Source of the DNA: a virus
Taxonomy: Duplodnaviria; Heunggongvirae; Uroviricota; Caudoviricetes
Strand: one strand, 5' to 3'
IMG/VR virus record: IMGVR_UViG_2228664000_000050
Coordinates: 1-4,410 of that record
Length of the DNA: 4,410 nt
Below are positions 1-4,365 of this stretch, piece by piece. Each line of letters begins with the position of its first letter. Within the stretch, counting starts at the first letter, position 1. Position numbers and translations under genes: made by a program. Below the pieces are notes generated by a model. It worked only from the letters and a program-made list of their open reading frames with translations, made no database searches and had not been told where the DNA came from.

Positions 1-59
1 GATCGGGTGCCTTCGTTGACTTCAACAACGCGCACCCCGTGGTGGTAATCCTGAGCCAT
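1..59 (-). CDS. Tail sheath protein (P2 FI-like), N-terminal 19 codons only; gene continues beyond the window start
   Basis: Reverse complement of 1..59 translates MAQDYHHGVRVVEVNEGTR, matching my recollection of the conserved sheath N-terminus (MSDYHHGV...NEGTR). A strong Shine-Dalgarno AGGAGG lies about 9 nt upstream of the ATG (minus-strand coordinates 74..69). Confidence 0.6.
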   Translation of the reverse strand, partial: MAQDYHHGVRVVEVNEGTR

Positions 60-135
60 AGTGGCGAACCTCCTGATTGGATTAGGCTTCGCCCTATGTT
101 GAAGTGATTGTGCCTGACAAACAGCTAAGCGCAGT

Positions 136-153
136 TGTGTCGTTATTCACACA
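136..153 (-). promoter_or_regulatory. Candidate P2-type late-promoter activator site (TGT-N12-ACA dyad) upstream of the sheath gene
   Basis: The sequence TGTGTCGTTATTCACACA at 136..153 is an exact TGT-N12-ACA element with extended TGTG/CACA arms. It sits in the 142-bp gap between the invertase stop (202) and the sheath ATG (59), about 85 bp upstream of that ATG. No convincing -35 is present, which is typical of activator-dependent late promoters. The exact transcription start and -10 are not resolved. Confidence 0.4.
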
Positions 154-201
154 AAATAACGGTATTTGTCTGCTTGCAGGGATAATCAACATAATGCTGA
201 T

Positions 202-768
202 TCAGGGGGATTCATTGATCTTATTTGCCGGAAATTTTCTATAAATGGTAGAAACGCCTACATCAAAAATCAGTGCAATACGCTGTCTTGATTCTCCGGC
301 CTCGAGTAAACGCCCAATCTGTGCCCACTGTTCGGTAGTCAACTTAGGACGGCGTCCACCTACTCTGCCTTTGGCACGAGCTACAGCCAGCCCTGCCCTG
401 GTACGTTCAACTATCAGTTCGCGTTCCATTTCAGCCAGGGCACCCATGACATGAAAAAAGAAACGGCCCATTGGGGTACTGGTATCAATACTGTCAGTCA
501 GGCTTCTGAAATTCACACCACGCTGGCGCAACTCTTCTATCAGCGTAACAAGATGCCGCATACTGCGCCCCAACCTGTCCAGCTTCCAGACAACCAGCGT
601 GTCTCCTGCCGATAGTGTCCTGAGTAGTTTTTTCAGCCCCGGTCTGTCGGACTTAGTGCCACTGATTTTGTCCTCAAAAATCTGCTCACATCCCGCGCAG
701 TTCAGTGCATTACGTTGCAAATCGGTGTTCTGGTCATTTGTTGACACGCGTACATAGCCAATAAGCAT
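202..768 (-). CDS. Serine-recombinase DNA invertase (Pin/Gin/Cin/Hin family)
   Basis: The translation MLIGYVRVSTNDQNTDLQRNALNCAGCEQIFEDK...DRPGL...GDTLVVWKLDRLGRS...GRFFFHVMGALAEMERELIVERT has the catalytic-serine motif YVRVSTNDQ and a C-terminal helix-turn-helix (RIALIFDVGVSTIYRKF). The ORF opens at 774 (MIM...), but AGGGGG directly abuts that first ATG and lies 6 nt before the ATG at 768, which also reproduces the canonical MLIGYVRVS start. Confidence 0.93.
   Translation of the reverse strand: MLIGYVRVSTNDQNTDLQRNALNCAGCEQIFEDKISGTKSDRPGLKKLLRTLSAGDTLVVWKLDRLGRSMRHLVTLIEELRQRGVNFRSLTDSIDTSTPMGRFFFHVMGALAEMERELIVERTRAGLAVARAKGRVGGRRPKLTTEQWAQIGRLLEAGESRQRIALIFDVGVSTIYRKFPANKINESP
665..747. 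promoter_or_regulatory. Putative Fis-dependent recombinational enhancer inside the 5' part of the invertase gene
   Basis: In Hin, Gin and Cin the enhancer lies within the first ~100-150 bp of the invertase coding region. The matching region here (codons ~10-36, STNDQNTDLQRNALNCAGCEQIFED) contains a Fis-like G-N13-C 15-mer, GTGTCAACAAATGAC, on the minus strand at 733..747. The second Fis site is not clearly identifiable. Placement is by positional homology only. Confidence 0.3.
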
Positions 769-795
769 GATCATCCCCCTGAATAAAAACCGGAG

Positions 796-1302
796 ATGAT
801 GCCAGTTAGCTGTTACCTCTGCATTTTCTTAAACGTTGGTTTAGGAGAAGGTTCGGCATTACCCGTTGGTGTGCCTGTTCCGTGGCCTTCAGCTACACCA
901 CCGACAGGCTGGTTGAAATGCAATGGTGCAGCTTTTTCTGCTGAAGAATACCCGGAGCTGGCAAAGGCTTACCCGACAAATAAATTGCCTGATTTACGTG
1001 GTGAGTTTATTCGTGGCTGGGATGATGGGCGTGGAGTGGACAGTGGGCGAGCGTTATTGAGTGCTCAGAGCGATACGCTGCAAAATATTACAGGTAGCTT
1101 TTTGGATATGACCACGGGGCCAAATAATAATACTGTCGGCGCATTTACCTCTTCAACATTGACACCAAATCTCGCATCAATTGCGACAGGTGGTACATAT
1201 AAACAGGCGAATTATTATTTTGATGCATCACGTGTTGCCAGAACATCAACGGAAACACGTGCGCGAAATATTGCATTTAACTTTATCGTGAGGGCTGCAT
1301 AA
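796..1302 (+). CDS. Alternative tail-fibre C-terminal cassette (S'v-like, collar-type receptor-binding domain), promoterless and silent in this orientation; functional part begins at the crossover core near 837
   Basis: The frame opens just after a TAA at 784..786 and covers site 1. It encodes GLGEGSALPVGVPVPWPSATPPTGWLKCNGAAFSAEEYPELAKAY...LPDLRGEFIRGWDDGRGVDSGR, the pattern of the phage tail collar domain (CNG...YP.L...LPDLRG.F.RG). The only ribosome-binding candidate is a GGAG 0-3 nt from the ATGs, too close to be convincing. Its stop overlaps the downstream tfa start (TAATG at 1300..1304). Confidence 0.8.
   Translation: MMPVSCYLCIFLNVGLGEGSALPVGVPVPWPSATPPTGWLKCNGAAFSAEEYPELAKAYPTNKLPDLRGEFIRGWDDGRGVDSGRALLSAQSDTLQNITGSFLDMTTGPNNNTVGAFTSSTLTPNLASIATGGTYKQANYYFDASRVARTSTETRARNIAFNFIVRAA
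824..849. repeat. Invertase crossover site 1 (hix/gix/cix/pix-like 26-bp imperfect dyad) at the invertase-proximal border of the invertible segment
   Basis: TTTTCTTAAACG-TT-GGTTTAGGAGAA. Its reverse complement, TTCTCCTAAACCAACGTTTAAGAAAA, matches site 2 at 15 of the first 17 positions and fits the family pattern TTCTnnnAAACC-AA-GGTTTnnGAnAA. The central dinucleotide is TT at 836..837. Confidence 0.8.
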
Positions 1303-1904
1303 TGGATAACGCTGTATTAAATAGCGAGCTTATTGCCACGAAGGCGGGGAATATTACCGTCTATAGCTATGATGGTGAAACTCGGGAATATATTTCCACT
1401 TCAAATGAATATCTTGCCGTTGGTGTTGGTATCCCGGCATATTCCTGTCTGGATGAACCTGGTATACATAAGGCTGGTTATGCAATCTGCCGTTCGGCAG
1501 ATTTAAACTCATGGGAATATGTGCCAGACCATCGCGGTGAAATCGTCTATAACACCGAAACGGGAGACGCCAAAGAAATCACAGCTCCGGGTGATTACCC
1601 CGAAAATACAACCACTATCGCCCCGTTAACGCCATACGATAAATGGGATGGTGAGAAATGGGTGACGGATACCGAGGCACAGCATAGCGCCGCAGTAGAT
1701 GCAGCAGAAGCACAGCGCCAGTCGCTGATGGATACAGCAATGGCTTCCATTAGTCTGATTCAGTTGAAATTACAGGCCGGACGGAAGTTGACGCAGGCAG
1801 AAACAACCCGACTTAACGCCGTGCTGGATTACATTGACGCGGTGACGGCAACAGATACCAGCACAGCGCCGGACGTCATCTGGCCTGGACTGCCGGAGGC
1901 GTAG
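1302..1904 (+). CDS. Tail fibre assembly chaperone (Tfa/U'-like), cognate to the silent alternative cassette
   Basis: This 200-aa ORF is coupled to the upstream cassette by a TAATG overlap. Its C-terminus, TATDTSTAPDVIWPGLPEA, carries the conserved Tfa C-terminal motif that is also present in the other chaperone. Confidence 0.8.
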   Translation: MDNAVLNSELIATKAGNITVYSYDGETREYISTSNEYLAVGVGIPAYSCLDEPGIHKAGYAICRSADLNSWEYVPDHRGEIVYNTETGDAKEITAPGDYPENTTTIAPLTPYDKWDGEKWVTDTEAQHSAAVDAAEAQRQSLMDTAMASISLIQLKLQAGRKLTQAETTRLNAVLDYIDAVTATDTSTAPDVIWPGLPEA

Positions 1905-2319
1905 GCCATTCAATATCGGGTGCTGTTGAAGTATCAACACGCATCAGCAGCACACGGTATTTCTTCCATTGGGTGAGAGTTGAAGTTTCTTCATCAGTTG
2001 CAATGCCCGCATCAACAGCATCCTGACGCCAGGATATTTCACTGTCAGCTTTTGCACGAAATGTGGCTTTCATGTTTTCTGCATCTGATATTTTCTGTTC
2101 TGGTGAAAGCGGCGGCTCATCAACCCATGCAAGGGCCCCTGAAACCATTCTCAGCATTTTTCCTGTTGGCTTATTTCCCCCATTAAATCTGACAGCATCC
2201 TCATCGCTGATTTCAATACCATCCTGCGGCCATGTCCCCTCCTTGATATAACTTTCGTATAGCGCTGCGTTGTAGATTGCATTTTCGGAAGGGCTGTAAA
2301 CACTTTTAACTTTATTCAT
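1876..2319 (-). CDS. Tail fibre assembly chaperone (P2 G / Mu U-like), cognate to the currently expressed fibre
   Basis: This 147-aa ORF starts 4 bp after the tail-fibre stop, with GGGAGA about 6 nt upstream of its ATG. Its C-terminus, LLMRVDTSTAPDIEWPTPPAVQAR, resembles the P2 G C-terminus (RVDPANPEWP). Its 3' end overlaps the convergent tfa' by 29 bp (1876..1904). Confidence 0.85.
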   Translation of the reverse strand: MNKVKSVYSPSENAIYNAALYESYIKEGTWPQDGIEISDEDAVRFNGGNKPTGKMLRMVSGALAWVDEPPLSPEQKISDAENMKATFRAKADSEISWRQDAVDAGIATDEETSTLTQWKKYRVLLMRVDTSTAPDIEWPTPPAVQAR

Positions 2320-2323
2320 TCTG

Positions 2324-3763
2324 TTATCTCCCTTTCGCTATATAGCAAAGATTAAACCCACCGCTACCTGACATACGGGCTGTAAAACCCGTTCTTGAAG
2401 TACCAGTTGAGTTAACTCCATAAGCAGGCATGGTTGTTGGAGAAAGCAGAGACTCCTGGATATCTGCCATTGTCAGTGTAATTGATTCGACCCGCGCGGG
2501 GAAAGGTAGCGGGAAAACAACATTCGTCCCTGTCTGTCCAACGGGGAAACCGAAAATACCCCATTGTGTAATTACCCCATCCGGCCCCTTACTCCATCCA
2601 GATTTAGGATTCGGCCAGTCTGCTGCTCCAGAGTGCCCCGTTGTAAAACTACTCATATCTGGTACTTGCCCGGTATCCGTTCCGACGTTCCTCGTTGCCG
2701 CTTCTCCCAAACCAAGGTATGTGAGAAGACCAGCTACATCCTTTCCACTCAAATTGGTAAGCGTATTGTCCAGCGGTTGTTTACCTGACAGCGCATTAAG
2801 CATTGTCGTGGCAAAGTTCGGATCATTCCCCAGTGCCGCCGCCAGTTCGTTCAGTGTATCCAGTGCAGCAGGTGCAGAACCCACCATTCCTGCAATCGCC
2901 GATTTCACAAAAGCCGTAGTGGCAATCTGTGTATTGTTGACCGACTGCGCCGCAGTAGGTGCTGTTGGCGTTCCGGTGAGTGCCGGACTCGACAGCGGCG
3001 CTTTTAGTGCCAGCGCATTGTTAATGGTGGTACTGAATTTCGGGTCATTGTTAATGGCTGCGGCAATTTCTTTCAGTGTGTCCAGCGTGGCTGGCGCACC
3101 GTTAATCAGAGCAGTAATAGCGGCCTGAACAAACTCAGTGGTCGCAATCCGCGTGGTGTTATTTCCTGCTGCAGGCGTCGGCGCTTTTGGTTCTCCGGTA
3201 AATGTCGGATTATGTTTCTGCGCATACTGGGTATGAGGATCTTGTGCGGCAATGTGGTTTCTCATCTGGTCATCCACATACAGCTTTAATTCCAGGACTT
3301 CATCATCCACGTATTTACGGGTTGCCAGCACTACAGCAGGGTCGATTTTCAGGGTGATATTGTCCGTACTGCTGGTAATCAGCACCATGCGCACGGTCTG
3401 GGTGCGCCCGCTGCCTTCAGCCAGTTGCGGCTTATAGCTTTCCGGGCAGTTGCCCACGGCAATCAATGCCCCGGACTCATCAAACAGGCCCACTTCACGT
3501 ATCCACCAACCGCCCTCGTTTTCAGGGATCACCTGTTCAGCAATAATCTGGCTACTGTTCTGCGGGTCGATATAAAGCATATTCAGCGCAGCCCGGCGTT
3601 TCTCATTTACCAGTGCCGTCTGCTTTGCGTCCGGCGTTGGCAATACTCCGCCGCCATCGCCCACCGCCATATGGGTAATTTTTAGCGGCACACCGAGCGC
3701 GGCGGCGCTGGCAAGTTTCGCCGCGCCAATATCCGTCAGCAGGGTATAAAATTTTGTGCTCAT
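2324..3763 (-). CDS. Tail fibre protein (P2 H-like), 479 aa: constant N-terminal shaft (aa 1-350) fused to the currently expressed variable C-terminal cassette (aa 351-479)
   Basis: The N-terminus MSTKFYTLLTDIGAAKLA...MAVGDGGG...GGWWIREVGLFDESGALIAVGN...ESYKPQLAEGSGR and the block LNELAAALGNDPNFATTMLNALSGKQP closely match P2 H-type fibres. The start overlaps the gpI-like stop (ATGA). Crossover site 2 lies at codons 346-354. Confidence 0.95.
   Translation of the reverse strand: MSTKFYTLLTDIGAAKLASAAALGVPLKITHMAVGDGGGVLPTPDAKQTALVNEKRRAALNMLYIDPQNSSQIIAEQVIPENEGGWWIREVGLFDESGALIAVGNCPESYKPQLAEGSGRTQTVRMVLITSSTDNITLKIDPAVVLATRKYVDDEVLELKLYVDDQMRNHIAAQDPHTQYAQKHNPTFTGEPKAPTPAAGNNTTRIATTEFVQAAITALINGAPATLDTLKEIAAAINNDPKFSTTINNALALKAPLSSPALTGTPTAPTAAQSVNNTQIATTAFVKSAIAGMVGSAPAALDTLNELAAALGNDPNFATTMLNALSGKQPLDNTLTNLSGKDVAGLLTYLGLGEAATRNVGTDTGQVPDMSSFTTGHSGAADWPNPKSGWSKGPDGVITQWGIFGFPVGQTGTNVVFPLPFPARVESITLTMADIQESLLSPTTMPAYGVNSTGTSRTGFTARMSGSGGFNLCYIAKGR
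2702..2727. repeat. Invertase crossover site 2 (hix/gix/cix/pix-like) embedded in the tail-fibre coding sequence at the constant/variable junction
   Basis: TTCTCCCAAACC-AA-GGTATGTGAGAA. The left half and core match the family pattern, while the right half is degenerate, as expected for a site constrained by coding sequence. It lies over codons LLTYLGLGE; the core AA at 2714..2715 is codon positions 2-3 of Leu350 on the minus strand. Confidence 0.8.
2774..3178 (-). repeat. Diverged tandem duplication (~190 bp / ~60 aa unit, two copies) within the tail-fibre shaft (phage tail fibre repeat)
   Basis: Protein copy 1 (aa ~196-256) is TPAAGNNTTRIATTEFVQAAITALINGAPATLDTLKEIAAAINNDPKFSTTINNALALKAP. 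Copy 2 (aa ~266-330) is TPTAPTAAQSVNNTQIATTAFVKSAIAGMVGSAPAALDTLNELAAALGNDPNFATTMLNALSGKQP. DNA similarity is still visible, for example ttcagtgtgtccagcg at 3072..3087 versus ttcagtgtatccagtg at 2851..2866. Confidence 0.7.
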
Positions 3764-4365
3764 GGATTCACTCTCATTGTGTCAATAACATGGACCGCCC
3801 CGCCTTCATGCGCGGTGCCGCCGGAAATAATTGTTTCGTTGATATACGGATAGATCGTGATTTCTTCGCCAAGATAGCTGGCGGCTCCCACCCAATGCGG
3901 GCCGCTGGTCTGCAGGTTGATGGACATGCCGATCATGTGACGGCTACATGGTTTGGCATCGCTTATCAGTCGCTCAAGTTCCAGATAGGTATCTTCAGTG
4001 ATGCCCTGGTCCTGCACGCCGATATCCAGACGAAACGTGCCCGGTGCCTCTCCGATCTGCCACCACTCAATAATGCGGATCAGAAAGCCGAACGGCTCCA
4101 CCACCCGCCGCACGGCACTGGTGGTCCCTTTATGCTGATGAATATAAAAAGCATCCTTCACCACCTGGCGCTTGACGCTTTCTGTCCAGCCCTCGTCCCA
4201 GCGATCCACAGAGAACGCCCAGGCGAGATAAGGCAGGAAACTGATCGGACAGGTTGCCGGATTCCACAAGTCACGCAGCGGCACCTGCAGATCAGAAATC
4301 CCGCTACAGGTCTGCGCCAGTCGGCGCTCCAGTGAAGTTGAACCCGGTGGCAGCAGACTATTCAT
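3760..4365 (-). CDS. Baseplate/tail protein, P2 gpI-like (201 aa)
   Basis: The translation contains LWNPATCP...LPYLAWAFSVDRWDEGW...HKGT...RRVVEPFGFL...WW...PGTFRLDIGV...GITE...ERLISDAKPCSRH, matching my recollection of P2 gpI. It is coupled at both ends by ATGA overlaps and sits immediately upstream of the tail fibre gene, as in P2 (J-I-H-G). Confidence 0.85.
   Translation of the reverse strand: MNSLLPPGSTSLERRLAQTCSGISDLQVPLRDLWNPATCPISFLPYLAWAFSVDRWDEGWTESVKRQVVKDAFYIHQHKGTTSAVRRVVEPFGFLIRIIEWWQIGEAPGTFRLDIGVQDQGITEDTYLELERLISDAKPCSRHMIGMSINLQTSGPHWVGAASYLGEEITIYPYINETIISGGTAHEGGAVHVIDTMRVNP

Follow-up and report, generated by a model that had tools for sequence, protein, structure and literature searches.

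The 142-nt gap between a serine DNA invertase gene and a tail-sheath gene in the 4,410-nucleotide stretch of phage DNA analysed here (the window) is very probably, at about 0.88, the orthologue of promoter PF of phage P2 and promoter pJ of phage 186. These are activator-dependent sigma-70 late promoters, and the orthologue would start the sheath operon. The element itself is an unannotated, uncharacterized orthologue of a textbook promoter class, and is real but ordinary. The evidence obtained in this work consists of a TGT-N12-ACA dyad, its conservation, its fixed spacing to the -10 hexamer, synteny with P2 and 186, and an activator gene in phages that carry the same gap. The proposed mechanism has five parts. 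(i) The phage's own zinc-finger activator of the Ogr/B family would bind the 18-bp dyad (153..136, minus strand). (ii) Bound at approximately -57.5, it would recruit RNA polymerase to a promoter with a usable -10 hexamer (CAACAT, 101..96) and a poor -35 region (CTGTTT, 124..119). (iii) Transcription would start at approximately 86-88, giving a leader of about 28 nt that carries AGGAGG. (iv) The transcript would open the sheath/tube/tape-measure operon (FI FII E T U D; in P2, FI FII E E' T U D). (v) The invertase would be an optional insertion upstream of the promoter module and would play no part in its working. According to published work on P2, recruitment proceeds via the alpha subunit of RNA polymerase; promoters of this class depend on their activator and, via the activator, on phage replication and on that subunit. 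For the window, we infer the start point, the binding of the activator and the dependence on it from the arrangement described below.

Genetic context and distribution

The features of the window are collected in table 1. Escherichia phage 500465-1 (Peduoviridae, Wadgaonvirus) shares 99.5% identity with the region, and likewise with the gap; for several P2-like phages of Klebsiella and Escherichia the identity to the region is 96-98%. The best full-length E. coli match to the window has 96.8% identity. The 5' end of the sheath gene, as far as it lies in the window, aligns with the N-terminus of P2 FI, and the Pfam family Phage_sheath_1 matches the full-length sheath gene of the 99.5% identical phage 500465-1. 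The promoter module is present, unannotated, in 840 of 5426 complete E. coli genomes (approx. 15%). The main value of the result is one of annotation: in a P2-like prophage group that is very common, it indicates where the late operon for sheath, tube and tape measure begins. It opens no new biological question.

Table 1. Features of the window relevant to the sheath promoter. Offsets marked with a plus sign count from the first T of the dyad.
Feature	Position	Strand	Remarks
gpI	4365..3760	minus	
Tail fibre H	3763..2324	minus	
Tail-fibre assembly gene	2319..1876	minus	
Inverted alternative fibre tip and assembly gene	796..1904	plus	
Serine DNA invertase gene	774..202	minus	Pfam Resolvase (9e-53) and HTH_7 (1e-15); upstream neighbour, outside the promoter
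Invertase-to-sheath gap, 142 nt	60..201		Between invertase ORF and sheath ATG
Predicted activator-binding dyad	136..153	minus	Reads TGTGTGAATAACGACACA; longer form TTGT...ACAA at 154..135
Weak -35 region CTGTTT	119..124	minus	+30..+35; 2/6 match to TTGACA
-10 hexamer CAACAT	96..101	minus	+53..+58
Projected transcription start	86..88	minus	Transferred from P2 PF (+66..68) and 186 pJ (+67) by ungapped, dyad-anchored alignment
Shine-Dalgarno AGGAGG	69..74	minus	Read from the sequence; 9 nt before ATG
Tail-sheath gene, 5' end (FI/J orthologue)	1..59	minus	Start MAQDYHHGVRVVEVNEGTR; continues beyond the window

A conserved dyad upstream of the sheath gene

A first-pass annotation of this DNA had reported an exact TGT-N12-ACA dyad at 136..153. 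The string TGTGTCGTTATTCACACA lies exactly there, and it is the sole match on either strand of the 4410-base window. Its arms lengthen to TGTGT/ACACA, and it stands 94 nt upstream of the sheath ATG, which is at 59..57 on the minus strand. Another inverted repeat, with the arms CGTTATT (141-147) and AATAACG (155-161), partly coincides with the dyad, overlapping one of its halves; the commonest relatives have it in the form ACCGTCATT / AATAACGGT (8/9), and its left arm is missing in one locus (L034), where homology starts 5 nt before the dyad.

The count for the whole window is at chance level: 1.34 matches are expected, and at least one occurs in 146 of 200 shuffles. For the 142-nt gap the expectation is 0.037. 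One match per 4.4 kb being what chance predicts, the dyad could be an accidental palindrome. The sheath operon would then be read through from the invertase promoter or the tail-fibre operon, or would use an unrecognized constitutive promoter; in keeping with read-through, the stretch from the invertase to the sheath gene yielded no intrinsic terminator. Position speaks against this reading, which is very improbable. When 80 IMG/VR loci with sheath homologues (89-100% amino-acid identity) were compared together with their upstream DNA, TGT-N12-ACA was found to start 87-94 nt before the sheath ATG in every one of them. The dyad thus falls inside a 10-nt position window in 80/80 loci, compared with a background density of 0.29 per kb over these 471 kb, and it recurs in 22/22 diverged clusters. 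Its geometry relative to the promoter is identical to that of two mapped promoters, P2 PF and 186 pJ. In 186 and in relatives that have no invertase, moreover, the module comes after a strong terminator (t45 in 186), so it must initiate transcription by itself there. Conservation in homologous prophages had been set as a check on the original proposal, and the dyad passes it at a fixed distance from the sheath gene while its flanks diverge.

The 80 loci, P2, 186 and two Yersinia phages were grouped into 22 upstream-sequence clusters less than 80% identical to one another, and the clusters were aligned ungapped, anchored on the dyad. High information is restricted to T0 T1 G2 T3, A7, A16 C17 A18, T31 G32 C33 and nAnCAT at +53..+58. 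Positions T0 T1 G2 T3 A7 A16 C17 A18 are invariant or almost so. In the -35 region, G is found at +32 in 22/22 clusters and T at +31 in 18/22. The sequence nAnCAT or nAnnAT occurs at +53 in 21 of the 22 and at +54 in P2; within the hexamer A54, A57 and T58 hardly ever change. Between the dyad and the -10 hexamer, 34 nt are otherwise variable in sequence and fixed in length, as is the N12 interior. Such a pattern is typical of a site that a protein binds and that is kept in register with a core promoter, not of an RNA hairpin or a chance palindrome, and 136..153 is predicted to be the site for a late activator of the Ogr/B zinc-finger type. The comparative set also refines the description of the element: conservation is stronger in the left half (TTGTGYCA), one G of the -35 region never varies, and the -10 hexamer stands at a strictly constant distance.

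The recognition element is asymmetric. Its left half, TTGTG(C/T)CA, is far better conserved than its right half, (A/C)CA plus a variable base. Among the 22 cluster representatives the T that precedes TGT is invariant and the mirror-image A after ACA is variable (154..135 in the window). When the gap was aligned directly with P2 PF by MAFFT, the result was poor, and the P2 dyad fell against another part of the window (CTG-CGCTTAGC). Anchoring on the dyad without gaps was preferred because it reproduces, in every cluster, the spacing to both the -10 hexamer and the ATG. Comparing the window ungapped with the IMG/VR flanks was uninformative, owing to indels and to the way in which the invertible segment is oriented.

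More distant P2-like phages depart from this form. Ralstonia phage RSY1 (L086) and Pseudomonas phage Dobby (L088) have TGT-N13-ACA (TGTAGCGCGCGCCGCCACA and TGTAGAGGGCCGGGCCACA, respectively) approximately 95-105 nt before the sheath ATG. TGT-N12-ACA was not found upstream of the sheath gene in Burkholderia phage phiE52237 or Aeromonas phage LPM4. The element may be spaced differently from genus to genus.

Predicted core promoter, projected start and ribosome-binding site

The -35 region and the -10 hexamer of the window are separated by a 17-bp spacer, and CAACAT matches TATAAT at only three of six positions. A constant distance from dyad to -10, combined with a poor -35, marks the P2-family late promoter class, and both were found in the window. 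A generic sigma-70 scan of the gap returned no minus-strand promoter; its sole match, on the plus strand at 166..195, is at chance level. An activator-dependent promoter whose -35 is poor would be expected to escape such a scan.

Dyad-anchored projection suggests that transcription starts at 86-88 and that the resulting leader, about 28 nt long, carries the Shine-Dalgarno sequence. Projected from the annotated P2 and 186 starts, the centre of the dyad lies at -56.5 to -58.5; promoters of the class have it at about -55 to -58. The first-pass annotation had described the dyad as suitably upstream of the sheath ATG, which stands, and as centred near -55, which is better given as approximately -57.5. 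The AGGAGG that it had noted before the ATG at 59 is present at 74..69, 9 nt upstream.

Comparison with promoters of P2, 186 and satellite phages

The four late promoters of P2 (PP, PO, PV and PF) share a common TGT-N12-ACA and depend on Ogr (PMC3931495). Curated GenBank records of P2 and 186 were used as the source of activator sites, promoters and start points. For P2, the site of activator binding is annotated at 17555-17583; transcription of the F operon starts at 17626-17628, and FI is placed at 17652. For 186, the annotated features are a site for the B protein, promoter pJ with its initiation point, and J, the sheath gene. Alignment with the late promoters of both phages had been named as a way to examine the dyad, and the outcome is clear: the dyad, -35, -10 and ATG of the window overlay those of P2 PF and 186 pJ without gaps. 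Counted from the first T of the dyad, the ATG lies at +95 in the window, +92 in P2 and +91 in 186. The window element was found at the head of a late operon, syntenic with PF and pJ.

P2 PF occupies the same syntenic place, directly upstream of the sheath gene. Its dyad starts 91 nt before the ATG (94 nt in the window), its -10 hexamer, GAAAAT, is at +54 (CAACAT at +53 in the window), and its -35 region has the conserved G at +32. P2, like the phages that bear this gap, has an Ogr-family gene after gene D. The two promoters differ in several respects. The right arm in P2 is CCA, whereas the window dyad is perfect and extends to TGTGT/ACACA; the intervening sequence is essentially unrelated; and the gene upstream of PF is fun(Z), on the opposite strand, whereas the window has a co-directional invertase gene. 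The activator homologue of this phage group, as represented by 500465-1, is only 56% identical to P2 Ogr.

The likeness to 186 pJ extends to the annotated B-protein site, promoter and initiation point, which are found at equal offsets from the dyad: the annotated promoter begins at +30, the -10 hexamer GACAAT is at +53 and the start is at +67. In 186, terminator t45 abuts the B site and there is no invertase, whereas the window has no terminator at that place. The right arm of pJ is also CCA. The window dyad is thus closer to the consensus than either of the experimentally studied orthologues, with their imperfect right arms. For the same reason, an exact match to the consensus does not by itself define function.

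The Delta-activated late promoters of P4 and phiR73 (Psid and PLL) also have TGT-N12-ACA as their recognition element, and their activators likewise belong to the Ogr/Delta zinc-finger family. The Pfam family PF04606 is named Ogr_Delta. Unlike that of the window, these promoters belong to satellite genomes and do not precede a sheath gene.

The activator gene and dyads at the places of other late promoters

The window contains no activator gene, and it ends before the end of the operon. In phage 500465-1 a 72-aa gene follows D; its product is 56% identical to P2 Ogr and matches Pfam PF04606 (Ogr_Delta, 9e-21). A prophage of E. coli 503440, whose gap is 100% identical to that of the window, has an annotated ogr/Delta-like gene after D, next to ssrA. 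The downstream order is sheath-tube-E-T-U-D-ogr in both. Promoter module and Ogr homologue occur together on at least 14 IMG/VR contigs.

Further dyads are found at the places of other P2 late promoters in both 500465-1 and E. coli 503440. In the gap between S and V lies TGTATCAGCACTGATACA, with its centre 55.5 nt upstream of the V ATG, the geometry of P2 PV. The P/O gap has TGTGTGGTTGTCGGTACA, with AACCAT at +54. The late-promoter proposal of the first-pass annotation gains support from the conserved dyad, the PF/pJ layout, the Ogr/Delta gene in a prophage with an identical gap and the dyads at pV and pO, activator dependence being predicted from these together.

The start of pV, as annotated in the P2 record or projected in the relatives, falls on the first base of the V start codon (L001, 16160..16226; L170, 2998..3064; P2, 10239..10308). 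Either the V mRNA is leaderless or the start codon has been mis-set. An additional TGT-N12-ACA in phage 500465-1, TGTGGTGTTCATGGCACA (L001, 10194..10211), is 58 nt away from the P/O dyad and overlaps the start codon annotated for the large terminase gene. Chance may account for it, or it may be related to the divergent pP promoter.

The invertase, read-through and other readings of the gap

A full-length invertase gene lies directly upstream of the sheath promoter in 34/80 loci, ending 96-161 nt before the sheath ATG. The remaining 46 have none there, and mostly have a tail-fibre assembly gene in that place. In several loci, L050 and L074 among them, the invertase match ends 96-126 nt before the sheath ATG, almost at the dyad (which starts at -91..-94). 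A strong terminator abuts the dyad in 186 (t45) and in the invertase-less relatives inspected. Since the promoter occurs with or without the invertase, and terminators abut it elsewhere, it is an autonomous module of approximately 95 bp, with the invertase as optional cargo at an operon boundary. The promoter travels as this compact module, its upstream edge being a mosaic junction beyond which lies a terminator, an invertase or other cargo.

A terminator scan of the minus strand over 60..201 found no intrinsic terminator, so that the stretch 154..201, from the dyad back to the stop codon of the invertase gene (204..202), has none. Invertase transcripts might therefore run into the sheath operon. 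The suggestion that the invertase gene separates two late transcription units fits the operon map of P2, and to that extent holds; the separation may be incomplete, as no intrinsic terminator stands between the units and read-through is possible. Expression of the sheath operon might accordingly not be purely Ogr-gated: constitutive read-through from the invertase could contribute, or CRP (cAMP receptor protein) could compete or cooperate with the activator at the dyad. The basis for such mixed control is that the usual abutting terminator is missing in the invertase-bearing lineage, and that the window's subtype has gained a CRP-like core matching at 9/10 positions. Mixed control of this kind is a long shot.

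The CRP consensus of E. coli is TGTGA-N6-TCACA, with class I and class II sites at -41.5, -61.5 and -71.5. The minus strand at 151..136 reads TGTGA-ATAACG-ACACA, the 9/10 match mentioned above, so that the dyad could be taken for a CRP site that places the sheath operon under catabolite control. This core is not conserved, however. Most close relatives have TGTGA-N6-GTACA or TATGA-N6-GTACA, and other clusters (e.g. TGTGCCATTTTTCATACA) lack the offset TGTGA, yet the outer TGT-N12-ACA is kept in all. The CRP-like 16-mer is centred at approximately -56.5 relative to the projected start, off the class I and class II positions. A CRP site as the function of the dyad is highly improbable, and was rejected on the ground that its core is present only in the window's subtype and gone in most relatives.

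Least credible is a role of the inverted repeats in RNA, as a terminator or attenuator of the invertase transcript: the repeats concerned (TGTGT/ACACA, CGTTATT/AATAACG and a hairpin at the invertase stop codon) do give hairpins when 230..100 is folded as RNA, but no stem is followed by a U-tract, the folding energy is ordinary (z = -1.15; 25 of 200 shuffles fold equally well), the N12 interior and flanks of other clusters are not self-complementary although TGT and ACA are kept, and the left arm of the second repeat is missing in L034. An intrinsic terminator, which takes a G+C-rich hairpin with a U-tract after it, was rejected for the gap on the hairpins without U-tract, the z-score and the empty minus-strand scan. 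An Rfam search of the gap returned no family match. The preferred reading remains that of a late promoter orthologous to PF and pJ.

A probable invertible tail-fibre segment

Upstream of the gap, a weak terminator-like hairpin (minus strand, 807..788; AACTGG...CCGGTT followed by TTTATT) separates a putative crossover site from the ATG of the invertase gene (774). Its effect could be to restrict transcription running on from the fibre operon into that gene, or it could be due to chance (two such sites, against 0.8 expected). The stretches 825..850 and 2701..2726 are apparently the two crossover sites of an invertible tail-fibre segment. When CTTCTCCCAAACCAAGGTATGTGAGAAG is set against the reverse complement of 825..850 (CTTCTCCTAAACCAACGTTTAAGAAAAT), approximately 20 of 28 positions match. 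The putative sites are inverted relative to each other; one is inside the H gene and one where the alternative tip ORF (796..1302) starts, and the segment of approximately 1.9 kb between them holds two fibre tips and two assembly genes. The arrangement looks like a typical host-range switch of the Gin/Cin/Pin type.
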